Below are positions 996 to 16,924 of a stretch of 58,786 bases of DNA, one piece after another; position 1 is the stretch's first letter, and the number at the start of each line of letters is the position of its first letter. A program made the position numbers and the translations under genes. The notes under the pieces are model-generated. The model had not been told where the DNA came from and ran no database searches. It worked only from the letters and a program-made list of their open reading frames with translations. Origin of the DNA: a virus (lineage: Duplodnaviria > Caudoviricetes); the IMG/VR virus record IMGVR_UViG_3300033067_002133, positions 1 to 58,786 of that record. One strand, 5' to 3'.

Positions 996-1024
996 TATAT
1001 TGGCTAAAGCTTGTAATTGTCAAC
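996..1024 (-). promoter_or_regulatory. repeated promoter motif copy 1
   Basis: GTTGACA-attacaagctttag-CCAATATA on - strand. Confidence 0.8.
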
Positions 1025-1207
1025 AAAAGGCCAATATTGCAGGGTTTTTGCCGCTTTTCGCTGCGGTCGGAGCCCCTTTTCCAGAAACTGCCTGTTATTT
1101 AGGCAGCACTGCCTATTTTTTGGGCAATATCACATTCCTGTCGCCATTGATGCGGTTTTTGCTGTTTTCCTGCCGTTTCGCTCGGCCTGGTCGTTTTTCG
1201 CTCATGC

Positions 1208-1567
1208 TTAACTTTTCGGCACGTCTGCGGCTGTTGTCTTCTCAGATTGCCTATTTTGACAATCTGAGCGATTGATAATGTGGGTTAGGTCTTGTGCGGC
1301 GTCGGTGATTGCTTGTGCGAGTTCGGCGATTTGGCTGATTGTTTTCGTCTCGCGTGGTGTTGGTAGGTTGCTGAGCCAGTTGGCTATGCTGTTTTGTAAA
1401 TCGATCACTTCGGGGCTGTCTTTTGTTTGCCCTTTGTGAATGGTTCCGTTGTTGACTCGTGCCAGCAGTGCTGCGGTTAGTTGTCGTGCGATCAAGGCGT
1501 TTTGCTTGTCAAGTTCTTGCTTGATTGCCTGGTTGTCTGTTTGTTGGTTGTCTGGTGTCTGGTTCAT
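1208..1567 (-). CDS. hypothetical protein
   Basis: 119-aa ORF co-oriented with cluster. Confidence 0.55.
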   Translation of the reverse strand: MNQTPDNQQTDNQAIKQELDKQNALIARQLTAALLARVNNGTIHKGQTKDSPEVIDLQNSIANWLSNLPTPRETKTISQIAELAQAITDAAQDLTHIINRSDCQNRQSEKTTAADVPKS

Positions 1568-1692
1568 GTTCTGCAGCTAGCCCAGGGGGGGAATGCGGGC
1601 GGGGGCTGACGCCCCCTGCCCTGGTGTTGATGCTTGTTATCTCTCTCTTGCTGTCTGTACTGCCTTTGGTGTGTTCTATGGTGTTTTTGGTG

Positions 1693-1701
1693 CTATTTCA
1701 T
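1693..1701 (-). other. two-codon minigene ATG-AAA-TAG or nonsense-disrupted small gene
   Basis: AAGGAG RBS 9 nt upstream; the frame stays open past TAG to TGA at 1564-1566. Confidence 0.4.
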
Positions 1702-1744
1702 GGTTGGGGGCTCCTTGTGTGGGTTTGGTGGTTTTCCGGTCGTC

Positions 1745-1787
1745 ACAATGCCGCGCCGGTTCTCCTTGTCGGCGCGGGGTTGTTGCG
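1745..1787 (-). repeat. conserved intergenic GC hairpin, copy 1
   Basis: CCGCGCCG-N11-CGGCGCGG followed by CATTGT on - strand. Confidence 0.7.
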
Positions 1788-1794
1788 ACTGGGT

Positions 1795-2340
1795 TTAGTA
1801 CTGTTCCAAAATTGCCGCCAGTTTCTCGATTTGCTGCATGTTAAACACCTTGGCCATCTGATCGCTGGTTTCCTGGCAAGCTCGATAGATCGCTTCTGCC
1901 TTACGGCTGTCGGTGTCATACCCAAACTCATCCGCCCAGCTTTTGAATGTTTGAGATCCTGCCCGGGCGTCCATAATCAGGCACGATAGGACGGCTGCGG
2001 CTGCCGGCTTCTTCCCTCCGGTCCCTTTCTCTACGTCCATTGCTAGGCGGAGCGTTTCAAGTCGTCTGTCGTGCCAATCTTTGATGTTGTTGAGCCGATT
2101 ATATTTCGGGTGATGTGCGACGCCTTGCCAGAAATCGGTTTCCATTGCGGCGCCTTGATTCGGCTGGGTCATCTTTCGGAATCCTACCTTCCAAGCGATT
2201 TGCCAGTTCTTCGTTTCCTCGTCTTGCTTGCCAGGTACTTGGCGGGCTCCGTATTCGATACCCCAATCTCGCAGGCACTCATCAACGGCCGATTCTCGCT
2301 GTTGGGTCGTCATTTCGTCATAGTTGGCGGTTTCGTCCAT
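1795..2340 (-). CDS. conserved phage hypothetical protein (start moved to ATG 2340)
   Basis: GGAG RBS; C-terminal motif TFKSWADEFGYDTDSRKAEAIYRAC typical of a phage family. Confidence 0.75.
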   Translation of the reverse strand: MDETANYDEMTTQQRESAVDECLRDWGIEYGARQVPGKQDEETKNWQIAWKVGFRKMTQPNQGAAMETDFWQGVAHHPKYNRLNNIKDWHDRRLETLRLAMDVEKGTGGKKPAAAAVLSCLIMDARAGSQTFKSWADEFGYDTDSRKAEAIYRACQETSDQMAKVFNMQQIEKLAAILEQY

Positions 2341-2416
2341 CGTTTTTCTCCGTGTTTTTGGGGTTCTGTTAAACTGGGGTATTTTCATCCCATTTTTTGG
2401 GACGTTTTCAGGGCAA

Positions 2417-2455
2417 ACAATGCGGCGCGGGTTGTGAGTGCCGCGCCGGGTTGCG
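2417..2455 (-). repeat. conserved intergenic GC hairpin, copy 2
   Basis: CGCAACC-CGGCGCGG-N10-CCGCGCCG-CATTGT on - strand. Confidence 0.7.
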
Positions 2456-2459
2456 TGTC

Positions 2460-2684
2460 CTACTTCGGTCCGGTCCATGTGATTAGGTGGCTACCGTCAA
2501 CCTTGATCAATTGGGCTCGCGTTAGCATGCCTAAAACCTGGTTGTACTGGTCAAGGGTCATAAAGGCCATCACGGAATTGGAGTAAAGATGCCCGCTCGG
2601 TACGGTTCCGAGGGCTCGGATCGCGTCGGCGATTGCTCGGATCGCTTGGATTGCGGCTTGTTTTTGTGCTGGGGTTGCGTTCAC
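2460..2684 (-). CDS. small hypothetical protein, possible winged helix (start moved to GTG 2684)
   Basis: ATG 2741 lies inside the promoter motif; GGAGAAAGAAGCA-GTG is in frame. Confidence 0.6.
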   Translation of the reverse strand: MNATPAQKQAAIQAIRAIADAIRALGTVPSGHLYSNSVMAFMTLDQYNQVLGMLTRAQLIKVDGSHLITWTGPK

Positions 2685-2729
2685 TGCTTCTTTCTCCGTG
2701 TTTGTTGTTGTCGTCTCGGTCACTGTCTT

Positions 2730-2758
2730 TATATTGGCCATAACTTTTATTTGTCAAC
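2730..2758 (-). promoter_or_regulatory. repeated promoter motif copy 2
   Basis: GTTGACA-N14-CCAATATA. Confidence 0.8.
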
Positions 2759-3068
2759 AGTCAGCCGTTTCGCCATTGGTTGCCGTCTGGGTTGCCGTCA
2801 AGCTGCCTGGTTTGTCTACTTCGGTCCACGGCGCGAACGGGTCAATCCCGCTGGCCATTACTGGGCTCGCGCTTCGCCATCGTCCGTCGATCGTTTTGGC
2901 TGCGATCACTCTCCACTGGTTATCCTCCCACTGGGCCACGGCGCTATCGGTGGCGTTGCGCGCGTATCGCTGGTGGCGATATCCGTTGTGCCTGATTAAG
3001 TCGGTCGCGGTCGTTTCTGGTGTCGGGTCAATCATTGTTTCGGGCTCCGTGTTGTTTGTTTTTGCCAT
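2754..3068 (-). CDS. hypothetical protein
   Basis: 104-aa ORF; an internal ATG with GGAGCCC RBS may be the true start. Confidence 0.55.
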   Translation of the reverse strand: MAKTNNTEPETMIDPTPETTATDLIRHNGYRHQRYARNATDSAVAQWEDNQWRVIAAKTIDGRWRSASPVMASGIDPFAPWTEVDKPGSLTATQTATNGETADC

Positions 3069-3223
3069 TGGTTAATCCATAGGGCCGAATAAAACGGTTT
3101 ATGGTCCTTGTAAAGCAATCGCGTTACATTCCCTCCCGTCCATGTTTCGATCTGTCCGCTGCCGTCCACCATTGCGAAACAATACCAATCTTCGCCCATC
3201 AAATCGGGCATCTTTTCTGAATG

Positions 3224-3406
3224 CTAAATTGCCGCTCCGCCTTCATTGCTTAACCGGAATAACCAGCGCTCAAGCCGCTGCCGTGATCTGGTAACGGTTG
3301 GTGTTTGCTCCATGTTACGGCGCGCCATTACTCGACGGCGAATGTCTTCGACAATGGATTGCTTACGCCTCTCGCGTCGTTCCGTTGTTCGTTTTTTAGT
3401 TTTCAT
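3224..3406 (-). CDS. small Arg/Lys-rich protein (start moved to ATG 3406)
   Basis: GGAG RBS; the track start lies inside promoter copy 3. Confidence 0.6.
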   Translation of the reverse strand: MKTKKRTTERRERRKQSIVEDIRRRVMARRNMEQTPTVTRSRQRLERWLFRLSNEGGAAI

Positions 3407-3450
3407 GTTCGTTCGGACTCCGGTTTGCGTTGTTGTTCTCAACTCGATCC

Positions 3451-3479
3451 TATATTGGTTTAATCCGTTTGCTGTCAAC
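3451..3479 (-). promoter_or_regulatory. repeated promoter motif copy 3
   Basis: GTTGACA-N14-CCAATATA. Confidence 0.8.
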
Positions 3480-3498
3480 GTGGCGATTTCGCCATTGA

Positions 3499-3747
3499 TT
3501 ACTGGATGCCGATTTCCTTATCAAAAGCTTTCGCGTCTTCGATTGCGTGTCTTAGCTTCTGCTCGATGCTGTCTTCGTGCGGGTCCATCATTTGGGTCAA
3601 GTCGTCTTTGATGTCGTCGATTGTGCCTATGATGTCGTGATCGTGTCCGCTGCATAGTTCGGCCACTTCCGCCAAGCGTTCCTGAATTCGGTCAATGCTC
3701 GCGCGCAGGTCGTCGCGGATTTCGGTAATCATGTCTTGCGCTTTCAT
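3499..3747 (-). CDS. acidic helical hypothetical protein
   Basis: AAGGAG RBS, 82 aa. Confidence 0.7.
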   Translation of the reverse strand: MKAQDMITEIRDDLRASIDRIQERLAEVAELCSGHDHDIIGTIDDIKDDLTQMMDPHEDSIEQKLRHAIEDAKAFDKEIGIQ

Positions 3748-3785
3748 CGTCGTTTTCTCCTTGTTCTGTTTGTTTCTAAGTCCTC

Positions 3786-3824
3786 ACAATGCGGCGCGGG
3801 GTTCCAATGCCGCGCCGGGTTGCG
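3786..3824 (-). repeat. conserved intergenic GC hairpin, copy 3
   Basis: CGCAACC-CGGCGCGG-N10-CCGCGCCG-CATTGT on - strand. Confidence 0.7.
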
Positions 3825-3832
3825 GTGACTCT

Positions 3833-4096
3833 TTAGACTTCAGCCAGGTTAAGATTGTCGCGCAGTGCGATTGCAAGTCTTGCGTTCATCGCCTCTAAAC
3901 TTACTCGCTTTTTGTGGTCGGGCTCGATCTTGTTTAGGTGCTTTCCGGTCGTCGGTCCCCATTGGTTTTCGACTACCGTATAGCCTTTACCGGCAACGTG
4001 GAATCCTACGGCCGTTTCGTAGCTAAAATAGATCGTTACGTCTCCCATTTCCACGGATGTAAAGTTCGGCGCGATTTGCTTTAGTTTTACTGACAT
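3833..4096 (-). CDS. conserved small phage protein
   Basis: YFSYETxV...TTGKHLN motif common in phage early proteins. Confidence 0.75.
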   Translation of the reverse strand: MSVKLKQIAPNFTSVEMGDVTIYFSYETAVGFHVAGKGYTVVENQWGPTTGKHLNKIEPDHKKRVSLEAMNARLAIALRDNLNLAEV

Positions 4097-4141
4097 TGTT
4101 TTGCTCTCGTGTTAGTTGTTGTTGTCACTCGTTCACGCTTC

Positions 4142-4170
4142 TATATTGGTTTTATCTGCTACCTGTCCAC
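4142..4170 (-). promoter_or_regulatory. repeated promoter motif copy 4
   Basis: GTGGACA-N14-CCAATATA (1 mismatch). Confidence 0.75.
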
Positions 4171-4358
4171 GCTTTTATTTTTCGCTGTTGATTCACGATT
4201 TCGCGCTCAAGCTCGTCGATCTTGGCGGTTAGCCGATCAATTTCGGCATAGGCTTCGTTTGCTGCGCCTTTCCATAGTCCGGCCATAATGTAGGGCCGGT
4301 CGCGCGGTTGTTCGTTTCTTACGATCTGCTGGGCTTCGTCGTCTGTGAGTCGTTTCAT
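4152..4358 (-). CDS. small coiled-coil hypothetical protein (start moved to ATG 4358)
   Basis: AGGAGCCC-ATG. Confidence 0.6.
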   Translation of the reverse strand: MKRLTDDEAQQIVRNEQPRDRPYIMAGLWKGAANEAYAEIDRLTAKIDELEREIVNQQRKIKAWTGSR

Positions 4359-4377
4359 GGGCTCCTGTCCTTTGCTG

Positions 4378-4806
4378 TTAGTTTCCGCTGGCCATAATCC
4401 GCTGACACTCTGGGCCGATACCGCTATCAATCGATTCGGGTACTGTCAAGGTTCGACCGCAACGGCCACAACGGCCCTCGTGATGGATCGAATAACCTTC
4501 GGGCAATTGTCCGAATCTTTCAAGCTGGTTGATTGCCCAATTAATTACCTTCACCGGCAAGCTGTCCGCGCTCATCCGGCTGGCGCGGGTTGTGATTACC
4601 CTGTTCCCCTCGACCAACATACCCAAATAGGTGTAGTCGATTTCGTTATCTGCGCCGGTCAACAACGAAACAAACGTCGATTCGCGGTCATATCCGTGGG
4701 TCATTTTTGATCGCTTCACTTTGTAGGTATATCGCACTCCCGCGCTGTTGCTGATTGTGAAAGTCGCGTTACCAGCCAAAATAAAATCAAGGTTAATCAT
4801 TGTCAT
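4378..4806 (-). CDS. DUF6011-like Zn-finger protein
   Basis: C-terminal CGRCGRTLTVPESIDSGIGPEC. Confidence 0.75.
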   Translation of the reverse strand: MTMINLDFILAGNATFTISNSAGVRYTYKVKRSKMTHGYDRESTFVSLLTGADNEIDYTYLGMLVEGNRVITTRASRMSADSLPVKVINWAINQLERFGQLPEGYSIHHEGRCGRCGRTLTVPESIDSGIGPECQRIMASGN

Positions 4807-4820
4807 TGTCTCCTTGCTTG

Positions 4821-4849
4821 TATATTGGTTTTATCTTGTGCGTGTCAAC
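4821..4849 (-). promoter_or_regulatory. repeated promoter motif copy 5
   Basis: GTTGACA-N14-CCAATATA. Confidence 0.8.
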
Positions 4850-4862
4850 GCGATAATTGCCG

Positions 4863-5192
4863 CTATTCCATTCCGAGAAACATCGTTTTCAAATACTTGG
4901 CAATTATCTTGTTCACCTTTTGCATGTCGTCCACCGTCAAGCTCCACGCTTCGACGTCTCCGTGCAGCCACAATCCGTATTGCTGGTCCCTTGCGATCAA
5001 GGTGGTCAAGTAGTACCTACTGACGAATTGACCGCGCTCGGTATGCATATGGCGCTGATCGTAAAATTCAACAAGCGGGTCCATTTTGTCGTGAGTCAGG
5101 CAATCATTTAAGCCGTATCTGTCGCCGTGGTCAACAATGCGAATTGTCCAATTGATTCCACGGCTGGATTTAATCGTTTCGGTGTGTGCCAT
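4863..5192 (-). CDS. conserved phage hypothetical protein
   Basis: GDRYG..DCLTH..PLVEFYD..GQFVSRYY motif; AAGGA RBS. Confidence 0.75.
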   Translation of the reverse strand: MAHTETIKSSRGINWTIRIVDHGDRYGLNDCLTHDKMDPLVEFYDQRHMHTERGQFVSRYYLTTLIARDQQYGLWLHGDVEAWSLTVDDMQKVNKIIAKYLKTMFLGME

Positions 5193-5209
5193 TGGCCTGG
5201 TTTCCTTGT

Positions 5210-5554
5210 TTAGTGTTTGTCGTTTGCGATTGCGAGAATTTGACGGTTTAATGCTGTGAGTTGCTCAACGCTTGGCAATTGTGATTCGAGCCGGTTGGCT
5301 CGGTCGATCACTGCCCGATAGTCTCGTGTGATTCGATCAAGCTCGGCGCGCTTTGCTTTGATCTGCTCGGTCAGGTCTTTGATGTCGGCCATCATTCTGG
5401 CCGTTCGTCCGTGGAAGTCAGTAAAGCAAAGATCGTTTCGGATTGCGTCAACGATTGCAACCCGCTCGGTCGTCAAGATATCTTTGAGATATCCGTCACT
5501 TAGGCCGCTAATAATCGAATCAAGTTTGGCGATTTCGTCTTGCTTTTCACTCAC
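5210..5554 (-). CDS. coiled-coil hypothetical protein
   Basis: AAGGA RBS, GTG start. Confidence 0.7.
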   Translation of the reverse strand: MSEKQDEIAKLDSIISGLSDGYLKDILTTERVAIVDAIRNDLCFTDFHGRTARMMADIKDLTEQIKAKRAELDRITRDYRAVIDRANRLESQLPSVEQLTALNRQILAIANDKH

Positions 5555-5593
5555 TGCCGTTATCCTTGTGTTAGTTGTTAATCATCACACAAC

Positions 5594-5622
5594 CATATTG
5601 GTTTTAACTTGTGACTGTAAAC
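5594..5622 (-). promoter_or_regulatory. repeated promoter motif copy 6
   Basis: GTTTACA-N14-CCAATATG (2 mismatches). Confidence 0.7.
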
Positions 5623-5624
5623 AT

Positions 5625-5658
5625 AAAAACGGAGCGCCAATTTCCCTATTGGCGCTCC
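5625..5658 (-). terminator. intrinsic terminator
   Basis: GGAGCGCCAAT/ATTGGCGCTCC stem followed by GTTTTT on - strand. Confidence 0.8.
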
Positions 5659-5671
5659 CGTCCGTGTTTCG

Positions 5672-6166
5672 TTACAGTCCTGGGTCGGCGTCACTGTGAC
5701 AATCTTCATAATCAAGGCTATTCCAGCCGTATGGCTGATTTATAAGCTGTTCGCGCTTGATCTTTTGTTTCCACTTCCGCGACTCCCATGCCTCGGCGAT
5801 TGTCTTTCGGATTAAGTCCTCAAGGCGTCCATGCTGTTGCGCCTCTAAGTGAACATCTCGCACCCAATTGCTGGGTATCGATTTTTCTTCCCTGCTTCTG
5901 GTGGTAAATACCATCGGCTCCGCGCTACCTTTTGCTTTGATCGCTTCCGCGAACCATTGCACGCTGTCAACGCTGCACTGGAGCCGGTTCATATTGCACC
6001 TGATTAACATCTGAATGTGAGGATCAATTGCAATCATTTGGTCGATGTCTTTTGTTAGTACCTGACCGCATTGCTGGCGAATAATGCGGCGTAAAAACTG
6101 GCGATTTTTCCGATTTCGAATTGTCTGTTTGATCTTTGCCGTGTTGATAATCAACTGGAACGTCAT
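5672..6166 (-). CDS. hypothetical protein
   Basis: GAGGAG RBS, 164 aa. Confidence 0.7.
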   Translation of the reverse strand: MTFQLIINTAKIKQTIRNRKNRQFLRRIIRQQCGQVLTKDIDQMIAIDPHIQMLIRCNMNRLQCSVDSVQWFAEAIKAKGSAEPMVFTTRSREEKSIPSNWVRDVHLEAQQHGRLEDLIRKTIAEAWESRKWKQKIKREQLINQPYGWNSLDYEDCHSDADPGL

Positions 6167-6217
6167 TTGTATCGTCTCCTCGTGTTTGTGTTGCTACTGG
6201 TAACAATCGGTTATTCG

Positions 6218-6670
6218 TTATTTTGTCGGAATGTTAAATCTGAGAATATCTTCGAATTCAAGCTCGCTATTACATTCCTCGCACCAATACTCGCAATTAT
6301 CAAACAACGATATGCTCGCCTCGTCGTCTGGGTCGGTGGCTCCTGATGCCAACAATGACGTGGTCGCTCTTGCGTCGTGCAATTTGAGAACTCCTCCGCG
6401 CTGCTTGCAAACTGGGCAAGCCGCCTGCTGATGACGATCTGAATGCTGCTTGTCATAATCCTCTGCGTGTCTTGATGTCATACCCCACTTCTTTGGAATA
6501 TCTTGCTTGTAACTGCGTAGTCGATTGACAAGAAATTCGAAACATTCTTCGATTGGATGGCCAACGCCTGCGCATTGGTGGCGGATTTGATACAACTCGT
6601 CAATCGTTTTCTGCACTGCCTCAGTTAGTTTTACCTGTACTTGCTTGATTGATTCCGCTGCGCTGAACAT
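6218..6670 (-). CDS. Zn-ribbon-containing hypothetical protein
   Basis: CPVC...CEEC; GAGGA RBS. Confidence 0.7.
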   Translation of the reverse strand: MFSAAESIKQVQVKLTEAVQKTIDELYQIRHQCAGVGHPIEECFEFLVNRLRSYKQDIPKKWGMTSRHAEDYDKQHSDRHQQAACPVCKQRGGVLKLHDARATTSLLASGATDPDDEASISLFDNCEYWCEECNSELEFEDILRFNIPTK

Positions 6671-6715
6671 GGTCGTTGTCCTCGTGGTTGTTGTGGTTGT
6701 TCTCGTGCCTACTGA

Positions 6716-7222
6716 TCAATATTCAATCGAATCTTTTGCTTCTTTGATCAATGTTTTGATTGCCTCGATTTTAACTTTGATGTCGTCAACCATTTCTTCG
6801 TGCTGATCGATTTCCTTTTGATGGTCGTCTCTCGATGCAAGCTCAATGTTTTCATCATCAAGCTGTTCCTGTAGCTCGCTAATAAAATCCTTCACTCCGT
6901 CGAGTTCGATTTCCAGTTCCGCGATTTCGGCGTCGCACTCGTCAATGTACTCGTCAAGCAAGTCCATCAACTCCTTTTCGGGGTAGATCTCGTTTTCGAA
7001 ACGCTTGTAGCCCGAATCCACTAAATAATCGTCGTGTTCCGAAACTCCGATATGATAATCGGTAGGGCTCATTTCCTTCAGCACTCGCGCCGGTTCCATA
7101 CTCGCAAACGGCCCTCCAACGTCTTTGAACGAATAGATTTCGTTCATTGATTCGTCGAAACTTTTCTCAACGTCCACTGCTTCAATGCTTTGATCGCTCA
7201 TCCAGTCGGTAAACTTTTGCAT
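6716..7222 (-). CDS. highly acidic protein, possible DNA mimic
   Basis: about 50 Asp/Glu vs about 16 Lys/Arg in 168 aa (hand count); GGAG RBS. Confidence 0.7.
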   Translation of the reverse strand: MQKFTDWMSDQSIEAVDVEKSFDESMNEIYSFKDVGGPFASMEPARVLKEMSPTDYHIGVSEHDDYLVDSGYKRFENEIYPEKELMDLLDEYIDECDAEIAELEIELDGVKDFISELQEQLDDENIELASRDDHQKEIDQHEEMVDDIKVKIEAIKTLIKEAKDSIEY

Positions 7223-7262
7223 GGTATTTCTCCGGTTGTGTTGTTGTTTCGGTCACTGGTTG

Positions 7263-7291
7263 TATATTGGCTATACCCTGTCAATGTCAAC
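7263..7291 (-). promoter_or_regulatory. repeated promoter motif copy 7
   Basis: GTTGACA-N14-CCAATATA. Confidence 0.8.
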
Positions 7292-7745
7292 AAGTAAAAT
7301 CGACCGCTATTCCTGGGTTGTGGACTGTAGTGAGTCGCTCATCATCCAGTGTTTTCCAGCCGTAACATTGATCGCTGCCTAGTTCGGCTTTCACTTCCGC
7401 CATTGCAAGCTCTCGCAATAGATCGCCTCGTGCGTGGATTTTCATCTCTCGGTGGAATCGGAATCGCTCGTCGTCAATGTAGATATGGTAGTTCAATTTC
7501 AGATTGCCGTCATTGTAAAGTGTTGCGCCGTCAAATACTCGGCTCTCTACAATGCGGTGCGTTACCGATTTGATTTCTTGCTCGATCACTGCAAGATTGC
7601 AGTGCCACAATCGTTTTTTGTCAAATACAACTTCGGATAGATACGGCCTGGTCACAATCGTTGTGGTGGCCTTCATCACTTCAATCGTTACGTCGATGCC
7701 CTGCTTCTCGGCCTCTGTCAATGCTTTGATGATTTTCGTGTTCAC
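7287..7745 (-). CDS. hypothetical protein
   Basis: GGAG RBS, GTG start. Confidence 0.65.
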   Translation of the reverse strand: MNTKIIKALTEAEKQGIDVTIEVMKATTTIVTRPYLSEVVFDKKRLWHCNLAVIEQEIKSVTHRIVESRVFDGATLYNDGNLKLNYHIYIDDERFRFHREMKIHARGDLLRELAMAEVKAELGSDQCYGWKTLDDERLTTVHNPGIAVDFTC

Positions 7746-7782
7746 TTAATCGTCTCCGGTTTGTTGGTGGTGTCTGCTTGTG

Positions 7783-8319
7783 TTAACTTTTCTTGCTGGA
7801 TGTCAACGACTGTTTTGGGAATCGCTTGGCCATCATCTTGAGAATTTTCAGCTTTCCCGCTGTCCCTGCGTTTTTCATGTACCAAGCTAGTTGATCGGCG
7901 GCGGTTTCCCCTCGTTCCGCTCTTGATTCAACTTGATGCGGCGCTGCCGCCATTGCGTCAACGTCAATCGATTCGAACAACGATTTAATTTGCCGCTGCT
8001 CTCGCTCGTGTCTTAGTTCCGTTTCGTGTTTGCGTCGATCTCGATCAATTGCTGCCTTGATCGGACAACGCTTCTCGTTGTCGCTTCGGTAGATACGATT
8101 GATACAATCACTACCCACTTTGAATCTCTTTCCGTCCGCGCTCTTGACCCAGAATTCAAACATGATGCCATTGCAGCAATAGTCGCAACTTCCACCTGGC
8201 TGGTGTGGCGCTCCAGGATGTGAGATATAAACATTCTTCGTCATGCCGTCATATTTGAATGGTGCAACACCGAATCCTGCTCGCTCAAACGGATGTAGTT
8301 CGTGTTTTGCAAGTCCCAT
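7783..8319 (-). CDS. Zn-binding conserved phage protein
   Basis: CDYC...FKVGSDCI; abuts the upstream stop. Confidence 0.7.
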   Translation of the reverse strand: MGLAKHELHPFERAGFGVAPFKYDGMTKNVYISHPGAPHQPGGSCDYCCNGIMFEFWVKSADGKRFKVGSDCINRIYRSDNEKRCPIKAAIDRDRRKHETELRHEREQRQIKSLFESIDVDAMAAAPHQVESRAERGETAADQLAWYMKNAGTAGKLKILKMMAKRFPKQSLTSSKKS

Positions 8320-8688
8320 TTACGTTACCGTCACTTTCCAATCGGTTAGTTTCAATGCCTCTGCCAGTTTTTCGAGAACCGTTCTCGATGTCAACTTTTC
8401 TGGGAACGGATCGGTCGTTTTAACTCCTGCCTGATGCAGAGACTCGATCAAGCTTTCGGTTAGCTTTCGCTCCCCGTATGCAGTGCCAACGCCTCGCCGG
8501 CGAATGCCTCGATAGTCGATCTCCAGCATCGACGTTCGTTTAGTTCCGCTTTTGTTGGCCTTCTCAATAATCTGAGCGGCCGGTTTTAGTTCACCGCCAT
8601 CATAATAAAGCAATGTGGTGATCTTCATGCCAAAGTAGGCAATACCAACCGGCCGCTCTGACCAGCAATCTTCAATTTCAAGCTTCAA
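8320..8688 (-). CDS. hypothetical protein
   Basis: fills the gap between coupled genes; GGAG RBS, TTG start. Confidence 0.6.
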   Translation of the reverse strand: MKLEIEDCWSERPVGIAYFGMKITTLLYYDGGELKPAAQIIEKANKSGTKRTSMLEIDYRGIRRRGVGTAYGERKLTESLIESLHQAGVKTTDPFPEKLTSRTVLEKLAEALKLTDWKVTVT

Positions 8689-9249: not shown

Positions 9250-9282
9250 TCGTTCACTCCTACCACTTGTTCGTTACAACAC

Positions 9283-9337: not shown

Positions 9338-9344
9338 CATTGAT

Positions 9345-12329
9345 TTACGCTTTTTCTTGCTCGATATCGATCATTGCGTCGTGGACATCGCCTTTTAGGT
9401 CTGGGCGATTATCGTTGATGTATTTGATCATTAACCGCTGATGTATTGGCTGTGTGTTTGACAGAACGCGATATACGTCTGATCGTCTAAGCTTGCTGAT
9501 ATCATCTGCCGCTATCTTTACCATCGCGTCTGGATTGAAATCGTGTATCGATACCGATTTGCTTTCAGGTTTTCGTACCAACTCATCTGGAACGCCTGGC
9601 TCATCCAAGAATTGCGTTTGTCCTGCAAGTCCGCTGGTGCTGAATAGTGCCGATTGCGTTTCCTTGGGTTGCGGTGCTGTCGGTTTCTTGACGGCTTGCG
9701 GTTTAACGTCATTGCCAAATAAGTCTTTGCTCATCGCTTTCTCCTGTGGTGGTTGTTGCGACTCACTTATTGGCTTTTCCTTTGACTTGTCAACACCTTT
9801 CAGCCGCTCCATTACCATGTTAACGCGACGGCTTTGGGTTTCCGCCATTGGTCTAATCTTGTCGATCGACCGCTTGATGATCATGTTGATATTCTGCCGC
9901 GACTCGCCCATTTCCTTGGCTACGTCCGTTTGCTTCTGTCCTTTGATGTAAACCTTCTCAAGAATAGTTCTCTCCCGCTCTGGAAGTTCTGATAAAAACG
10001 ATTTAACCGAATTTCTCAAGTCCACTTGCGTCGGTTCATCCGGCTCTCGCATTTCGGCTGCGCGGTGATCGGCCACGTTGGCAATCATGTCGCCTTCGAC
10101 ATTGGAGCCTAGCGCTGGCTGATTCAAGCTCACAGTCGATCGATCGTCGCGTTTTTTTCTCGTCTCGTGACGATACATATTAATTCGTGTCGTATTGGCA
10201 ATCGCAGCAATCCACGTTGAAAACTTAAAGCCTTTTGCTGGATCAAATCGATGCCTGTTTTGATGCGCTGCAAGTAGCACCTCTTGAGTGAAGTCGTCAA
10301 GATAATCCTCGCCTTTCTTGCCGAGCCCTTTCTTGACTGCCCATTTTCGAATACCGTTATGAATCTTCGGATCGTTGATTAGCTCATCGAAGTTTGCAAC
10401 CGCTTGCGGTTTTTCTTCGGGCTCAACAATACTGACGGCGGCGCTCTCTGGTTTTTCTTGCGCGGCTGGTACTTCCGGTTCATCGCTAGGCTCGTCAATC
10501 TTTACCGCTGCCGCCTGCTCCTCTTGAGCGCGTTTCTGTTTGAATAATTCTTGAGCCCTGGCTCGTGCTGGATGAATCGGCTTGTCGGCCACCATGCTGT
10601 CTCGCATTTGGATCATGCGAAACATATCTTTTTTGGTTAAGTTCTCGCCTCTCGACAAGTCCCAAATGTTTTTGTTTTCAGCGATCGACTGCTGAACGAT
10701 TCGCTTGATTTTGTCGTCAACGCTTTCGGGCTGCGATTTCGGCGTCTCGCTGACTGGGGAATCTTCTGGCTCTTTGATCTCGACCGCCTCGCTGTCCATC
10801 GGCAATCGCATAACCATCTGACCGCCGCGATCGACGGCTTCCACCTTCGGTCCTTGACCAACCGGCTTTTTGCTTTCGTTATCATCGAATAGCGATTTTG
10901 TCTTTTGCTTAGCTACGAATGCCGCCATTTCATCGTAGGCTGATGTTTTCTTGGTCGGGCGTTCAACCATTTGCAGTGGATTAGTCGGCTTGATCGGGCC
11001 ATCGTTTCCATGCTCTAACGTTTCTGGAGGATCTCCATGCGGATCAAACAAAACGCCTTGATTCGGATCGAAGTCTTTGAGCAAGTGCCAGCGAGGCTTT
11101 CCTGCTGTCGTGTCCTTCAAAATGTACGTGTGGCCGTCAACCTTTTTCAACGAACCGATCTTCCAAACCTTAGCATTGAACATCTCGCGGCCCATCGCAT
11201 TAGTCGTTGGTCCTAATGGCATGGCGTATCGCAGTGGATTTCCTTTTGAAAACGGAACGCTATCGTCTCGCTTTTCTGGCTTCCAGTTTTCATCTTCAGA
11301 ATCCTTTCCGTCGCCGTCATAAAACGCTTGGGATCGATCGTAGTAATGAGTTCCCATCAACTTGTCGGTGTCCAGATACTTGTCAACCGCCTTGAAAATT
11401 TCTGGGTCGTGAGGCTGGATTTCTGGCTTCACTCCCATTCGAATTGCATCGGCAAATACTTCAAGCGGATCAGTTTGAGCGCCTGAAACATTCTTTTGCA
11501 TGTGACTCATAAGCACTGGTAAATGATGCTCGTACTGACTCATGTGCGTATCGAATCCGCGAATAGAATCGACATCGCTGTTTTCCAGCGCTTTGGTTAC
11601 TTTATTCTTGAACGATCGTCGATTCTCACCGCTAATGTCTTTGACTGCGGCATTCCAATCACGAATACCGTCATTTCGTCGACCGGCTTCTTCCAGTGCT
11701 GCTTGCTTGATCAATGGAAACACTTCAGGGTGATCGCCATACCGCGCCACGATATTTGTATCTAACGCTTTTCTGCGGTCGTATGTAACCGGCGTGTAGT
11801 TTTTCTTCCCTGTATCGTTGTAAACCGGGTGATAGTGTTCTCTCTCAAAATCATTAGGCGCATGGATATCTCTCGCTTGCGGCTCCCAACCTTCTGGAAC
11901 ATGAGACAGATCGACATTGTAGTCTCCATGCTCGTTTGGACTGATGACTGCGAACGACTTTTTATTCAAATCGAGATGGTCCGCATGTTCTGGAAAGTTC
12001 GAATCGTGAAAGTAGTGATAATCCGCTTTCGGGTTTCCAAAATGCGTGGCGTGATTGTTGAATAGATGCATGTGATCGCCCGTTCGCACCATCACCGCAT
12101 CGTACTGTGCAAGATCAGGCGAAAATGAGGAATCACCAACATGCGAATCGTACAGATTTTTAGCGATAGACTTGCCATTGTCTCCCATGTCCGGCATTTT
12201 TGGTTTTGGCGCATTAATGTTGAATTCATCTGGATCGAATGAATCATCTTCTTGCGTGGCCAACGAACCAAAAAAATCGTCGTCTTCTGGGGTGTCGACG
12301 CCATCTTTGTTGTATCGCATTTTGAGCAT
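9345..12329 (-). CDS. ~994-aa multidomain protein with embedded sigma-70 family domain (regions 2 and 4, ~9850-10370)
   Basis: DDFTQEVLL..RFDPAKGFKFSTWIAAIA; VSLNQP; LSELPERERTILEKVYIKGQKQTDVAKEMGESRQNINMIIKRSIDKIR; AAGGAG RBS at the portal stop. Confidence 0.85.
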   Translation of the reverse strand: MLKMRYNKDGVDTPEDDDFFGSLATQEDDSFDPDEFNINAPKPKMPDMGDNGKSIAKNLYDSHVGDSSFSPDLAQYDAVMVRTGDHMHLFNNHATHFGNPKADYHYFHDSNFPEHADHLDLNKKSFAVISPNEHGDYNVDLSHVPEGWEPQARDIHAPNDFEREHYHPVYNDTGKKNYTPVTYDRRKALDTNIVARYGDHPEVFPLIKQAALEEAGRRNDGIRDWNAAVKDISGENRRSFKNKVTKALENSDVDSIRGFDTHMSQYEHHLPVLMSHMQKNVSGAQTDPLEVFADAIRMGVKPEIQPHDPEIFKAVDKYLDTDKLMGTHYYDRSQAFYDGDGKDSEDENWKPEKRDDSVPFSKGNPLRYAMPLGPTTNAMGREMFNAKVWKIGSLKKVDGHTYILKDTTAGKPRWHLLKDFDPNQGVLFDPHGDPPETLEHGNDGPIKPTNPLQMVERPTKKTSAYDEMAAFVAKQKTKSLFDDNESKKPVGQGPKVEAVDRGGQMVMRLPMDSEAVEIKEPEDSPVSETPKSQPESVDDKIKRIVQQSIAENKNIWDLSRGENLTKKDMFRMIQMRDSMVADKPIHPARARAQELFKQKRAQEEQAAAVKIDEPSDEPEVPAAQEKPESAAVSIVEPEEKPQAVANFDELINDPKIHNGIRKWAVKKGLGKKGEDYLDDFTQEVLLAAHQNRHRFDPAKGFKFSTWIAAIANTTRINMYRHETRKKRDDRSTVSLNQPALGSNVEGDMIANVADHRAAEMREPDEPTQVDLRNSVKSFLSELPERERTILEKVYIKGQKQTDVAKEMGESRQNINMIIKRSIDKIRPMAETQSRRVNMVMERLKGVDKSKEKPISESQQPPQEKAMSKDLFGNDVKPQAVKKPTAPQPKETQSALFSTSGLAGQTQFLDEPGVPDELVRKPESKSVSIHDFNPDAMVKIAADDISKLRRSDVYRVLSNTQPIHQRLMIKYINDNRPDLKGDVHDAMIDIEQEKA

Positions 12330-12331
12330 GA

Positions 12332-15300
12332 CTATCTCCTTCTTCGGTGGTGCATATGTGACGACATCACCCACATTACCGCCAACAATCCTGCCAGGAT
12401 CAGCAAATTTCGTTTTCCGCCCACTGCGTCCGCTAAACTGTCGTACCATCCTTTGGTTGACTTTTGTTCGCTCAAATGGTTTAACGACGCAACCAGCGAC
12501 TCTTGATACATTTTCATGGCCTTCTTGTCACCACGAACCAAGTGTTCCTTCAATACGCTCATGGTGTACGGAGGCTTAAACCCTCGCTTCATTGCGGTTT
12601 GCAGAATATGCTGCGCGGCTTTCGTCGACTGAACATATCGACTATGCGCTGGATTTGGTTGCCAGCCAAGATTGATCGCTGCGGCGCTTAGCTTATCCAA
12701 TCGCTCAGTTTGCTGATGCAGGAACTTGCCGGCCGCAATTGTTTGCTCCTCTTTGCTCGCTCCTCGCATGTTGAGCCCTAAATGATGGGCTGTCTGCCGA
12801 ATGAAATTGCCGACTGCATTTTGATTGTGCAAGTTTCTTTCATTAAATCCAAACGCTACGGCAACTTTGTTGATCTTCCGCATTGTGCCTGGCGGAATCT
12901 TCATTGTGGTTGCCTTGTCTTCCGGTTGCTGACCTGGGACACCTGTTGGATTTTTCTGATGCCAATCTACTGCCTCTTGAAACAGCTTTGGATCGACCTT
13001 TGATCCGAAATCGTCGTCGTTGACAAGATCTGGAATCTGGCGATTTTCCCAAGCAGTTATACCGGTAGTCTTATCGTGGATCTTCTCCCAATCACCGATT
13101 TTAGTTCCAACCGGCATTGATCGAACATGCAAGATGTCTGGCTTGCTTCCTGTTGGCGATTGCTGCGGTGCGGCTGGCTGTGTCGGTTTCGCCTGCTGCT
13201 CTTGCGTCAGCATTGGTTCTGGCGACTGAGGGGACTGGGAATCTGGCGCTGGTGCGTCAACTGATTCGTCTTGTGGAACTTCCGTCAACGCTTGTTCATC
13301 TTGCGGCACAACCGTTTTTGCTTGCTCTGCATCGAGCGACTGTTTCTGCGATACCGCTTCCAATCGTTTCTGCCAATCACCAACATTGCCGCCAAGATGC
13401 TTAATGACCTGGCCTGCGTCTGCCGGAATTTGACTGCCTTCGATCCAGAATTTTCCGTGTTGCTTTTTAACGCCATCGATCTCTGCTCCATCAGGCAGTG
13501 CGTCAAGCTTTCCTTTGACATCTGACATGCGAAGCGATTCCTGCGCAACTGGCTGTTGCTGAATGTCGACTGGTGCGGCATCACCAGCTTTGTGCGGGAA
13601 CATTTGGTCGACCACTTGTTGGCCTTTTTCGCTCGTTAGCCAATCAGTCATTTCGCCTGGATGTGTGAATTGGGATTTCATCGCGTGTGCAAGTTCATCG
13701 GCCTTCATAACCGAACCCGCGTCTCGATGACCACGCTCCCATGCCAATTGAATCAAGCTACTGGAGCCCGGCGCCATCTTTTTCTCTTGCGGTGGATTAC
13801 CAAGCTGCATTTGCAACAAAACCGTTTCTGCTTGTTTTTTGTTTAGCTTTGTGGCTGCATTAGCTTGCTTGCTCCAAATCGCTTTGTGTTCGTCAATCTT
13901 CTTTGCTTTCTCTTGCTCAACTCGTGCCGCCTCTGCGGCCGCTTCTTGCTGCTTTCGTTGCTCCATTGCCTGCGAAACATTAGCGGCATGCTTTTCGATA
14001 GTTTGGGGATCATACCCTTCGTCCGAAAAACTGAAATCGCCGCCTTTGCCGAACAGCGTATTTCCATTTACCTTCATACCGTTTTGATCGGACTTCCACG
14101 TATCGTTCCCTAAATGGGTGTACGAGCCCTTCGTCGGTGACTGAGCCACCAAATTGGTAGGCAGCACTGAACGCTGCTCTTTACTTGCGATGTGATTCTT
14201 GAAATCAAACTTCCGCGCTGGATCGTTGTTTGCTTCCAGATATGCCTGCCGCTCCTCGTTTGACGCTTCTTCAAACTCTTTTCGTGGAATCAATTGGCCG
14301 TACTCAAACTGTTTTCCTGCCAGCGTGACTCCGCCAAATGGAGCATAGCCACGATGAACCATGTCGTTGTGCAACTCTCGACGTTTGAGCATCGGCCTGT
14401 GGCCATCATCGACCTGTTTTTCGTCTTGTGGCTCAACTGGCTTCGGCTGATCAACTTGAGGCTGCTGTGGCTCAACTGGCGCGGGGTCTTGTTTTGGCTC
14501 TGCCTGTGGCTGCGATTGAATATTTTCATCCGAACTAACGCTAGATTCACCAGATTGCTTTTGAACTGGCGCTGCCGATTTCCTGGCTGCTGCCCATGCT
14601 TGCATATTCGGTGCTTCGACTGAAGCCTCGGCCGGCTTCACCTTCTTCAGCTTTGGCATTTTCACCTGGCGAACCTCGCCATGCTGCATGCCCTTCATTT
14701 GCTCCTTAACGCTATCGTGAACCGCCTTGGCGTGATGCAATAGTTCTTCTTCGGGGAGCCCGTGTTCGGCCACCAGCTTGTCTCGCAACTTGGCAACCTG
14801 GATCGCATGCTGGCCTTGGCTTTTCTGGTCAGTTTTGCCACTGGCCAAACGAGTCATCTTTGCGGCACTGGCATAATCGTGAAGATCCCGGTGAAGCGGG
14901 TTTTCAAACTGAACCGTCCCATGATTCATGCCGGCGATGTAATTCCTGGTCAGGTTGGACGGTTTTTGGCCTGCTGGAGCCCCTGGCTTCAATTCTGGCG
15001 CTGGTTTGCTATCGTCAGCCTTCCATCGGCCACCCTGTAGCGTTTCCTGGCCTCCTGAGTCGCTAATGCGGCTTGAGCCCGGTTGTGGGTCTATTCCGCC
15101 CTTAACCTCGGCCTCGGCGCCCGGTTCAGGCAAATCGATCTTTGGCGGTTTGGCTGGCAAGCCGATTTTCGATTCACTCGGCTCTTGGACGTACCGTTCA
15201 GGCTGCTTGCCCTTTCGATACCGCGGATGGCCTTCGAATTGATCGTACTGCTCGTCGATTCCATGCGGATCGTGATCTGGGTGATTCGGATCGGTTTCTG

Positions 15301-16924
15301 GATCGCCGCCTCCCGGCCCTTCTGGTCCTGAATCGTTGGGCGGTCCACCGCTCGGCCCACCGTCTGGTCCCTGGCCTGGCAATTGCGTTCCTGGCGGCAT
15401 CTGATTTCCGCCCTGCTGCATCACCTGCTCCTGCTGTTTCAATTGAAGCTTTTGAGCGACGATCGCAGGATTGAACAGCTTCAGATCTCCGCGGCCTGGG
15501 GCATTCAAGCCTAACCTAGCCAGAACTTCCGCTCCGTTCAATTCGGCGCCCATGTCCCAAGCAGCTTTCATCGCCATTAACTCCTGCTGAGGAATCGTCG
15601 ATTCAGGATTCAGCCGAAAGTAAAACGGGACGTTGCGATACTGAGGATAATTCCAATCACGCAGAACATCGACCTTCTCCCTGGTGACAGTTTCCTCCAG
15701 CGCCGCCGAGTCACTCCTGACGATCTGCTTCAAGCTGTCGTGCTGCAAATCGGCAACACCGCTGTTGCCAATACCACCACCTGCCGCCTTGGTTGACAGT
15801 GTTTGACCAAGAATAAACCTGGTGATCATATCACCAAAGTAATTGTCGATTAGATTTTGCAATGCCTGCATGCCGGCCGTGTTCATCGGAATCTGCTCTA
15901 CCGTTGGCATCTGCGGCATCGCCGGATCGTAAGGCGCAAGAATCACATTAGTCTTGCCCTGCTGCGCGGCAACCTTCTCGATCTCTTGCTTGTAAGTGTA
16001 ATTGCCTGTTGGGTAGTAATAGATCGTGAACCCCATCGCTGTCCGCTCGACGATTTCGACAAGCTGTGCGAGGGTTTCTTGCTTTTGATACCAAGTCCAG
16101 TACAAAAAGTTTCGTATGCCAACACCTTGGACGTAACCGGCCGACACCGGATCTTCGTACTCGCCATCACGAATCATATGCTTATGAACGATGATTCGAC
16201 GACGCTCCCACCCATCAAAAAACACCGCGGGACCATCGGGCGTTAAGTCTGCTTTTAAGTTGTGATACAATCCTCCTTCATTGTTTCGATTCAAATGAGA
16301 CATGCTAACTTTGATACCAACCCCATCTGGATCATAGCTGCCTGAATTATCATCAAATCGAAACACAAGCTTATCGCCATTAATTGGCATCCACTTGTTG
16401 ATATGCCACTGCGGCTTTCCGGCTCGATCGTGACTTCTCGCTGCACTATGCAAAATCGCATACTTCCCATACCAAATTGCCTCGCTCAAAACGCGAAGGT
16501 ACTCGGTGAATCGATATGTCTTCGAAACCAGCCTGGTCAAATGCGCTGCCGCCTGAAGTAGTTGCTTGTCATGCTTATCTTCGGGCTCAATACTCCAATT
16601 CAACAACGACACCATTCGCTGCCGCGCTTGCAGCGGTCCAGAGATTACCGGATCGTTAAGCATCGCTGCCGCATTTTGAACATTATGCAAAATAGCCTGA
16701 TCGGCATTCCTGTAAACCTTGGCGAGACTACTGACGAGTCCGCCAAACGTGTAGATGTGAGGGATAACCGTCTTTCCAAAATTAGACGGCATCGAAGTTC
16801 CACTCGTTGGATCTACGTTTAACTGTTGTCGATACTTGATTGGCGCAAGCTGACCTGGTAGGTAGTTGGTTCCTCCCGCGCGAAAACCACCTGGCATATC
16901 GACTACAAATTGATGGTCACTCAT
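12332..16924 (-). CDS. Mu gp29-like (DUF935) portal protein with ~1000-aa C-terminal extension
   Basis: EAIWYG, G.GI...LYW.W, ILGQTLST, LEETVT..V..L.D.N in the first ~490 aa; located after terL. Confidence 0.85.
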   Translation of the reverse strand: MSDHQFVVDMPGGFRAGGTNYLPGQLAPIKYRQQLNVDPTSGTSMPSNFGKTVIPHIYTFGGLVSSLAKVYRNADQAILHNVQNAAAMLNDPVISGPLQARQRMVSLLNWSIEPEDKHDKQLLQAAAHLTRLVSKTYRFTEYLRVLSEAIWYGKYAILHSAARSHDRAGKPQWHINKWMPINGDKLVFRFDDNSGSYDPDGVGIKVSMSHLNRNNEGGLYHNLKADLTPDGPAVFFDGWERRRIIVHKHMIRDGEYEDPVSAGYVQGVGIRNFLYWTWYQKQETLAQLVEIVERTAMGFTIYYYPTGNYTYKQEIEKVAAQQGKTNVILAPYDPAMPQMPTVEQIPMNTAGMQALQNLIDNYFGDMITRFILGQTLSTKAAGGGIGNSGVADLQHDSLKQIVRSDSAALEETVTREKVDVLRDWNYPQYRNVPFYFRLNPESTIPQQELMAMKAAWDMGAELNGAEVLARLGLNAPGRGDLKLFNPAIVAQKLQLKQQEQVMQQGGNQMPPGTQLPGQGPDGGPSGGPPNDSGPEGPGGGDPETDPNHPDHDPHGIDEQYDQFEGHPRYRKGKQPERYVQEPSESKIGLPAKPPKIDLPEPGAEAEVKGGIDPQPGSSRISDSGGQETLQGGRWKADDSKPAPELKPGAPAGQKPSNLTRNYIAGMNHGTVQFENPLHRDLHDYASAAKMTRLASGKTDQKSQGQHAIQVAKLRDKLVAEHGLPEEELLHHAKAVHDSVKEQMKGMQHGEVRQVKMPKLKKVKPAEASVEAPNMQAWAAARKSAAPVQKQSGESSVSSDENIQSQPQAEPKQDPAPVEPQQPQVDQPKPVEPQDEKQVDDGHRPMLKRRELHNDMVHRGYAPFGGVTLAGKQFEYGQLIPRKEFEEASNEERQAYLEANNDPARKFDFKNHIASKEQRSVLPTNLVAQSPTKGSYTHLGNDTWKSDQNGMKVNGNTLFGKGGDFSFSDEGYDPQTIEKHAANVSQAMEQRKQQEAAAEAARVEQEKAKKIDEHKAIWSKQANAATKLNKKQAETVLLQMQLGNPPQEKKMAPGSSSLIQLAWERGHRDAGSVMKADELAHAMKSQFTHPGEMTDWLTSEKGQQVVDQMFPHKAGDAAPVDIQQQPVAQESLRMSDVKGKLDALPDGAEIDGVKKQHGKFWIEGSQIPADAGQVIKHLGGNVGDWQKRLEAVSQKQSLDAEQAKTVVPQDEQALTEVPQDESVDAPAPDSQSPQSPEPMLTQEQQAKPTQPAAPQQSPTGSKPDILHVRSMPVGTKIGDWEKIHDKTTGITAWENRQIPDLVNDDDFGSKVDPKLFQEAVDWHQKNPTGVPGQQPEDKATTMKIPPGTMRKINKVAVAFGFNERNLHNQNAVGNFIRQTAHHLGLNMRGASKEEQTIAAGKFLHQQTERLDKLSAAAINLGWQPNPAHSRYVQSTKAAQHILQTAMKRGFKPPYTMSVLKEHLVRGDKKAMKMYQESLVASLNHLSEQKSTKGWYDSLADAVGGKRNLLILAGLLAVMWVMSSHMHHRRRR

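Follow-up and report, generated by a model that had tools for sequence, protein, structure and literature searches.

A sigma domain in a portal-linked phage protein suggests possible delivery of a sigma factor with the phage genome to switch on early genes

We analysed a 58,786-base virus contig (Duplodnaviria; Caudoviricetes), which is the whole of IMG/VR record IMGVR_UViG_3300033067_002133 and is called the window below. Directly behind its portal gene lies a gene for a 994-amino-acid protein with a sigma-70-family domain, followed by an island of small genes with eight copies of one promoter motif, an arrangement that suggests, short of proof, that the phage brings a sigma factor of its own into the host to switch on its early genes. 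In the mechanism we propose, the 994-amino-acid protein would be a polyvalent head cargo, made late from the portal's message, which would be packed in the capsid and enter the cell alongside the DNA. Its extracytoplasmic function (ECF)-like sigma domain would then bind the host's core RNA polymerase, and the holoenzyme would read eight 29-bp promoters (GTTGACA-N14-CCAATATA) driving the island, including an ArdC-like gene, so that transcription of the island at time zero would be independent of the host's own sigma. The protein is probably virion cargo, and we infer from its build and its relatives that it would be packaged, perhaps cleaved, and injected; the whole chain, in which it is packaged, injected and reads these promoters, falls somewhat short of an even chance.

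The portal and sigma genes and their parts are as follows.

12332–16924, minus strand: portal, 1530 amino acids, Mu-type portal (PF06074)
9345–12329, minus strand: sigma-bearing polyvalent-type protein, 994 amino acids, ATG at 12329
11910–12179 and 9576–9731, minus strand: further modules in common with the long protein P0013 (see below)
10767–11252, minus strand: middle module common to P0013, BLASTP E 3e-18
9852–10304, minus strand: ECF-like sigma domain (region 2, linker of ~50 amino acids, region 4)
9348–9593, minus strand: C-terminal helical domain of ~80 amino acids, phrog_20105 match

The preliminary description of this DNA had placed a sigma-70 domain deep within a protein of about 994 residues, and both regions of the domain confirm it. 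Sigma70_r2 (PF04542) matches nucleotides 10158–10304 (E 1.7e-10, 40.9 bits against a Pfam cut-off of 24) and Sigma70_r4 (PF04545) nucleotides 9852–9995 (E 1.3e-9, 37.8 bits against a cut-off of 24.1), PF08281 is matched at 26.6 bits (cut-off 25.7), and the sigma families of PHROGs agree (phrog_351, 4.9e-20; phrog_1740, 1.5e-17). The gap between regions 2 and 4 spans about 50 amino acids with no region 3 match in Pfam. The Sigma70_ECF model is matched by the homologues P0010, P0014 and P0021, while the window protein falls short of it; aligned with ECF-like relatives, its sigma carries the motifs FSTWI..IA.N and LPERER. These features point to an intact, ECF-like sigma domain whose activity is predicted. 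No polymerase catalytic domain was detected, the protein showing sigma domains only in Pfam and PHROGs. The lengths given here count from the ATG at 12329 (994 amino acids); the longest frame (9345–12449) has 1034, and the public gene call, from a GTG start, has 1009.

Such a domain might no longer be an initiation factor and might instead be a handle on polymerase or DNA, tethering, for example, the incoming genome or cargo to the host polymerase. Its divergence (the best PDB sequence matches are separate weak stretches with E ~6e-6) and the shortness of the linker speak for this reading, which we nevertheless consider improbable: both regions exceed the curated Pfam cut-offs, the residues conserved across ECF-like relatives are retained, and at least five other long proteins contain the domain, their recognition helices varying as expected for working sigmas of differing specificity.

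The coupling of the sigma gene to the portal, proposed earlier, was likewise upheld. The portal stop (TAG, 12334–12332) is followed after 2 nucleotides by the sigma-gene ATG at 12329, and the portal 3' end reads CAC CAC CGA AGA AGG AGA TAG, with the ribosome-binding site AAGGAG inside the last portal Arg codons at the usual distance from the ATG. The portal itself consists of a Mu-type domain (PF06074, E 5.6e-34, residues 86–473, nucleotides 15506–16669) and a C-terminal extension of about 1050 amino acids, in which no Pfam family was found and which terminates in a hydrophobic stretch and RRRR. Upstream of its ATG the sigma frame has 40 further open codons, which overlap the portal end (12332–12449, minus strand). 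Within its last 27 codons, about 25 ahead of the stop, the portal frame contains the formal -1 slippery heptamer A_AAT_TTG. A -1 frameshift there, if it occurred, would join portal to sigma, like the single giant open reading frame (ORF) of the relative L001 described below. As a candidate this fusion was rejected, the 82 nucleotides downstream folding no better than shuffles (z = +0.84). Two separate genes are the simpler reading because of the strong ribosome-binding site and ATG, and the odds of a frameshift fusion are low.

The 994-amino-acid protein appears, from its modules and setting, to be built like a polyvalent head-cargo protein. It combines several unrelated modules, namely N-terminal and middle modules shared with P0013, the sigma domain and a widespread C-terminal helical domain, and it is encoded in a portal–terminase context, with the portal directly upstream and the terminase beyond; scaffold and capsid follow in relatives. 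An exhaustive HMMER search with the protein against 1.84 billion representatives gave 410 matches at E ≤ 0.001. One of them, P0013 (2087 amino acids, with ART-PolyVal and LPD1 domains and without a sigma), shares three collinear modules with it (E 3e-18, 4e-6 and 7e-6). Sigma domains were found in six of the eight long matches scanned with Pfam: P0014 (1024 amino acids, metagenomic) consists of InPase, sigma and topoisomerase IB, and P0010 (1746 amino acids) has a sigma and the same C-terminal domain as the window protein. Among the matches listed, the sigma domains nearest to the window's are those of the long metagenomic proteins P0012, P0014, P0010 and P0021, and in an alignment FSTWIG.IA.NH and RKKRD.G are common to all five while the recognition helices vary. 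Hallmark domains recur in homologues or positional equivalents (InPase in P0014 and P0005; LPD1 with InPase in P0004), LPD1 and InPase being described as signature domains of polyvalent proteins in the main text of Iyer et al. (2017; PMC5512222). A search for the genomic context of P0014 and P0010 yielded just partial relatives (InPase or other), none with a sigma.

The C-terminal helical domain, matched by 27 of the 150 matches listed from the HMMER search, also occurs as stand-alone proteins of 58–85 amino acids and at the ends of proteins of 700–2400 amino acids; its structure model (predicted local distance difference test, pLDDT, 84.8) found no PDB fold match with E < 1, and the N-terminal 520 amino acids of the sigma protein had no usable match in the ESM Atlas. 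For the protein as a whole, a word-based search of 5.8 billion proteins returned just the protein itself, twice, and IMG/VR no homologue. Among deposited phages the sole match to it is a Fusobacterium phage sigma that stands alone. Deposited phages do have proteins with InPase, whose annotations are internal head, minor head, virion structural, DarB-like antirestriction or portal protein, and no deposited-phage record was found with sigma and InPase together.

Comparison with related loci places the gene in a slot that can hold polyvalent-type proteins. To compare gene order, ORFs of five related IMG/VR contigs were matched to the window by BLASTP. Four contigs (L002, L003, L007 and L008) share the order large terminase, a 329-amino-acid protein, portal, protease/scaffold-like protein, a 141-amino-acid protein and a capsid-like 349-amino-acid protein, closing with three small head or tail genes, and the slot between portal and protease/scaffold is empty or filled by polyvalent cargo; in the window this slot holds the sigma gene and the small-gene island. 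L002, a complete 100-kb relative with terminal repeats, has there a 1577-amino-acid protein with Sigma70_r2, Sigma70_r4 and InPase. In the 59-kb relative L001, a single ORF of 2752 amino acids (9710–17968) comprises a Mu-type portal, LPD1, InPase and a methyltransferase; the window portal is 46% identical to its portal part, and portal residues 1351–1469 match residues 1886–2007 of the fusion. L001 further matches the window in the terminase, the 329-amino-acid protein and one more upstream gene, its fetched stretch stopping soon after the giant portal ORF. The L002 sigma is RpoD/group-3-like, not ECF-like, and only 23.5% identical to the window sigma; from the alignment and this identity, no tree having been built, it looks as if sigma domains entered portal-adjacent polyvalent proteins at least twice independently. 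With Pfam, a sigma was found in one of five whole related records, and across the portal clade sigma cargo is sporadic.

A linker motif, HPR…G(K)(F/W), recurs between the modules of the relatives' polyvalent proteins (L001, L002), and the consensus of P0010, P0012, P0014 and P0021 shows it ahead of the sigma domain; that form was not seen in the window's protein. L007 has two portal homologues about 5 kb apart (9941–11506 and 16779–19232).

The island of small genes begins 34 nucleotides past the sigma stop and carries the promoter battery.

211–9249, minus strand: small-gene island, ~23 small ORFs, most without a family
9319–9338, minus strand: terminator-like hairpin between sigma stop and motif copy 1
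9283–9311, minus strand: promoter motif copy 1, exact
8678–9130, minus strand: ArdC-N-like anti-restriction gene, in island
7263–7291, minus strand: promoter motif copy 2, exact
5594–5622, minus strand: promoter motif copy 3, 2 mismatches, strong hairpin 5631–5658 before it
4821–4849, minus strand: promoter motif copy 4, exact
4378–4806, minus strand: DUF6011 gene, in island
4142–4170, minus strand: promoter motif copy 5, 1 mismatch
3451–3479, minus strand: promoter motif copy 6, exact
2730–2758, minus strand: promoter motif copy 7, exact
996–1024, minus strand: promoter motif copy 8, exact

GTTGACA-N14-CCAATATA occurs eight times, always on the minus strand (996–9311); seven copies have at most one mismatch and the eighth has two, and in all eight the spacing is exactly 14 nucleotides. 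The motif had no match in 100 shuffles and no further copies elsewhere in the 58.8-kb contig. Every copy lies in a non-coding gap, 14–45 nucleotides 5' of the start codon of a small ORF with a GGAG-type ribosome-binding site, most with a CA-rich leader between motif and ribosome-binding site, and terminator-like hairpins stand immediately before two of them (9319–9338 before copy 1, 5631–5658 before copy 3). The motif holds about 34 bits over its 29 positions, of which about 10 fall at spacer positions (conserved A at +4, G at +8 and T at +10), and an invariant CC, for which the -10 hexamer of a primary sigma does not account, precedes AATATA.

Several features favour a link between this battery and the neighbouring sigma. 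Rigid spacing and high information, as found here, characterise ECF-type or phage-specific sigmas; a primary sigma needs neither the invariant CC nor the conserved spacer positions; and the motif is confined to the island beside the sigma gene, with a composition common to portal extension, sigma gene and island. At third codon positions the excess of A over T is +0.23 in the island, +0.16 in the portal extension and +0.08 in the sigma gene, against -0.28 in the portal core, -0.04 in the head and tail genes and -0.12 in the genes at 20–38 kb. Positions 1–15500 form a compositional island relative to the rest of the window. The phage sigma may thus bind core enzyme and recognise these eight promoters, and this link is weaker than the cargo claim.

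A number of results, on the cargo side and on the promoter side, weigh against the proposed chain. On the cargo side, Pfam detected no MuF, LPD or peptidase domain in the 994-amino-acid protein, nor any of the hallmark zincin, ART-PolyVal and InPase domains, and Phage_Mu_F was absent from the sigma protein and the portal extension at E values up to 0.1. Our own sigma profile found a sigma domain in only two of 24 portal-clade loci, the window and L002, in the stretches fetched. The maturation signal that had been proposed for the cargo also failed. It concerns the head genes at the other end of the window.

54665–56236, minus strand: protease/scaffold-like head gene, by synteny and alignment
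53096–54145, minus strand: probable major capsid gene, by position and 38–47% identity to the syntenic gene of four relatives

The first of these is protease/scaffold-like, an assignment to protease plus scaffold that draws on synteny, on the long helices of the C-terminal half and on weak hints from the fold: its low-confidence model has a pLDDT of 56, and the viral fold matches (capsid maturation protease, prohead scaffold and peptidase) have template-modelling scores of ~0.2 or less. In relatives it comes directly after the portal or polyvalent gene, while here the island and the contig break intervene. The second is the probable major capsid gene by synteny; it has no Pfam, PHROGs or PDB match, and the protease/scaffold gene likewise has no PDB sequence match. 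The preliminary description had seen [RK]Y motifs shared by the portal extension, the sigma protein and the scaffold. In the C-terminal half of the scaffold they are indeed enriched (8 observed against 2.3 expected; none of 2000 shuffles reaches 8), as they are in the helical C-terminal halves of four of five scaffolds including the window's (three of the four homologues, from L002, L003, L007 and L008). Elsewhere they occur at chance, with 3 against 1.7 expected in the portal extension (p = 0.24) and 5 against 3.4 in the sigma protein (p = 0.26), and they are not enriched in the relatives' polyvalent proteins. We therefore rejected [RK]Y, enriched only in scaffolds, as a shared protease-site motif. 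A conserved protease/scaffold junction past the N-terminal domain, …[RK]Y…(A/L/M)P…N(T/V)…P, is found in five homologues including the window (invariant Y183, P191, N195 and P199 in window numbering). As a profile (…[RK]Y…AP..TN…) it reached at best 0.0 bits in 10 polyvalent-type proteins, where shuffles reach 6.7, and was rejected as well. Release of the sigma by the prohead protease at [RK]Y, as first envisaged, is not supported: the motifs in the sigma protein are at chance level, and the junction profile matches none of these polyvalent-type proteins. The support for head cargo is comparative and goes beyond the preliminary description: the modules in common with polyvalent proteins, the slot between portal and scaffold, and the InPase annotations.

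The missing head-targeting domain could also mean that the sigma protein is not packaged at all, and is a late-made regulator that switches the island on late or aids late transcription generally. Phage sigmas usually act inside the infected cell that produces them. We consider this quite improbable for a large multi-module protein with polyvalent kinship, encoded in the slot between portal and scaffold where relatives fuse cargo to the portal; moreover, no motif copy precedes any structural gene, and the island's ArdC-N-like anti-restriction gene would be of little use late. A sigma that is made late and serves early genes must travel in the virion, the logic that N4's virion polymerase and T4 Alt also follow. 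The anti-restriction and accessory genes of the island are useful only early in infection, and the combination of such early-useful targets with a late-made sigma and a head-cargo build therefore raises the odds of virion cargo.

On the promoter side, the eight copies do follow right after the sigma gene. They are unusual in their downstream half (CCAATATA), in their rigid spacing and in the spacer positions that are conserved; the label 'non-canonical' does not fit the upstream half, which contains the canonical -35 hexamer TTGACA. The region-4 recognition helix departs in the alignment from RpoS/sigma-70 at certain positions, which we take to be those contacting TTGACA, though this neither supports nor excludes a TTGACA reading. 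The motif was found in none of 15 portal-related loci, and no IMG/VR contig has more than one copy, the 65 contigs with a single exact match being chance-like. In the sigma-bearing relative G002 (crude gene calling; first 100,000 of 100,267 bases), dyad counts, intergenic k-mers and repeat families gave no comparable battery. Joint occurrence of sigma fusion and motif in relatives was not observed. Finally, the best sigma-70-like site elsewhere (39121–39148, TTGACA-16-TAATAT, ahead of recombination genes) resembles a battery element with one extra spacer base, and for this reason the host primary sigma may read the battery.

In that case the sigma protein would still be cargo, the battery would be a set of ordinary strong early promoters for the host primary sigma, and the injected sigma would read a few other sites or compete for core enzyme and so shut off host transcription. 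The polyvalent-type kinship favours packaging here too, and the site at 39121–39148 and the lack of a battery in G002 also speak for it. The -35 element is a perfect TTGACA in six of the eight copies, with a TATA at 18 nucleotides and a CAATAT at 15, yet no reading gives a good primary-sigma promoter: at 18 nucleotides the last T of the -10 is present in three of eight copies, and a 15-nucleotide spacer is short. A primary sigma would require neither the CC nor the fixed spacing nor the ~10 bits in the spacer, and the motif is confined to the island beside the sigma gene. We regard this alternative as unlikely. Matches to a sigma-70-type consensus are no commoner genome-wide than in shuffles, so that a consensus scan cannot decide which sigma reads the battery.

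A ninth, weaker copy of the motif lies inside the sigma gene.

9766–9794, minus strand: ninth motif copy (7/7 and 6/8 matches, spacing 14)

Downstream of this copy, GTTGACA-N14-CCAATAAG, come a CA-rich leader of the island type, the sequence AGGAG and, in frame, an ATG at 9734. Given these signals, the last 129 amino acids of the sigma protein, which include the helical domain, might also be made alone as the island's first product; alternatively, they may derive from an island gene that was later joined to the sigma gene.

The island itself is an insertion within the head module, as relatives keep the portal–scaffold order without it. The region at the other contig end, 56.4–58.8 kb, is part of the same insert. 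It carries a pentapeptide gene and two unknown genes, and its NinG-like gene (56393–56848) is followed by a terminator (14-bp stem, 56334–56365), an AT-rich stretch and the head genes. By their sequence families, the recognisable island genes are of an accessory or early type. Contigs of another study hold a relative of portal, sigma gene and island that is 90–98% identical. Its deletions (6167 to 6720 and 9093 to 9264) have the size of a cassette, which fits a fluid accessory region. Variants in two sequencing runs lack the 150-amino-acid gene at 6218–6670, with slightly different joints, and in one variant 9094–9263, the first small ORF behind promoter 1, is swapped for 17 other letters.

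Almost all genes of the window are on the minus strand. The remaining recognisable genes, assigned with PHROGs, are as follows.

17980–19551, minus strand: terminase large subunit, upstream of portal
19538–20143, minus strand: terminase small subunit, upstream of portal
27764–29239: tail protein
34760–36915: RecE/RecT-like genes
39939–41747, plus strand: helicase

The 329-amino-acid protein between large terminase and portal (16921–17910, minus strand) is kept in all five compared relatives and has a weak KTSC-domain match. No tRNA genes were found within the 58,786 bases, and no near match to the window among 50,697 deposited phages. Position 1 is not a physical genome end, as an independent assembly contig continues about 47 nucleotides beyond it, and the right end truncates the pentapeptide-repeat gene (58311–58784). 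Portal relatives in genome bins (L093–L100; 36–41% identity) belong in six of eight cases to Planctomycetota (Pirellulales, Thermogutta and allies). One of them lies within a 2.4-Mb contig, several are extended to 770–1150 amino acids (stop-to-stop frame lengths), and no sigma domain was found in their fetched stretches. One independent holder of a near relative carries the label of a freshwater metagenome, and there were no RNA datasets among the listed holders.

More broadly, phages of this portal clade may inject a sigma as a module of polyvalent proteins, which would programme the host core polymerase at time zero, with a sigma recruited at least twice independently, a private eight-promoter battery read in the window, and possibly a general take-over strategy; we put this wider proposal forward tentatively and would sooner expect it to fail than to hold in full. 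To our knowledge, phages reach host transcription at the start of infection by using the host holoenzyme as it is, by injecting a polymerase (N4, crAss-like phages) or by injecting a modifying enzyme (T4 Alt). An injected sigma, if real, would be a fourth and cheaper route, in which a small subunit makes a few host cores phage-specific before any phage gene is expressed. It would widen the catalogue of polyvalent cargo from anti-defence enzymes to a basal transcription factor and provide a naturally occurring orthogonal pair of sigma and promoter, the latter already available in eight variants, and the recurrence of sigma, InPase and topoisomerase IB in metagenomic proteins may then reflect a general, unrecognised take-over strategy. 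The sigma claim is directly testable with recombinant protein, for which a phage culture is unnecessary.

Among known systems, morons are islands of accessory genes in late operons, arranged as promoter–gene(–terminator) cassettes. The island resembles them in its cassettes inserted between head genes and in the cassette-level insertions and deletions among strains, and differs in having eight cassettes with one rigid 29-bp promoter next to a sigma gene. Stand-alone phage sigmas, such as T4 gp55, SPO1 gp28 and gp33/34, and phiEco32 gp36, are likewise sigma-70-family proteins that redirect host core to phage promoters with a consensus of their own. They are small, are produced in the early or middle phase of infection and turn on genes expressed afterwards, whereas the sigma described here is embedded in a 994-amino-acid protein of the late head operon and its candidate targets are early- or accessory-like. 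The SPO1 sigmas are described in PMC13401047, and in the sections concerned of a 2021 jumbo-phage survey (PMC7824862) phage sigmas and polyvalent proteins are handled separately. Our full-text literature searches turned up no account of a sigma factor packaged in virions, nor of sigma domains within polyvalent or MuF proteins.

The closest class is that of the polyvalent proteins. The main text of Iyer et al. (2017; PMC5512222) predicts that they travel in the capsid and enter the host to 'jump-start transcription or replication', and it cites an InPase–portal fusion in Burkholderia virus BcepF1. Like them, the protein described here is large and multi-modular, lies beside the portal–terminase genes and shares modules with an ART-PolyVal/LPD1 protein, and InPase, LPD1 and methylase modules are found in the window's relatives, in some cases as portal fusions. 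It differs in that the cargo is a sigma-70-family domain and that no LPD, zincin or MuF domain was detected in it; the word 'sigma' is absent from the main text of PMC5512222, the supplements, which possibly list sigma-bearing architectures, being outside that scope. The same text counts the virion RNA polymerase of phage N4 among polyvalent proteins. That enzyme is carried in the virion and reads dedicated early promoters on the injected genome, as described in PMC4496689, and the resemblance, which is one of function and not of family, lies in a virion-carried transcription component for a dedicated early promoter set. N4 injects a complete single-subunit polymerase that uses hairpin promoters, whereas here the specificity subunit alone would be injected, would need the host core, and would read bipartite, sigma-70-like promoters. 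T4 Alt, as treated in the main text of PMC5512222, is also a head-packaged protein that biases the host RNA polymerase towards phage early promoters; it is an ADP-ribosyltransferase that modifies the polymerase, while a sigma would replace the promoter-recognition subunit. The kind of system is in this sense known, a polyvalent head cargo that jump-starts transcription, and the new element would be that the cargo is a sigma factor, perhaps with promoters of its own.

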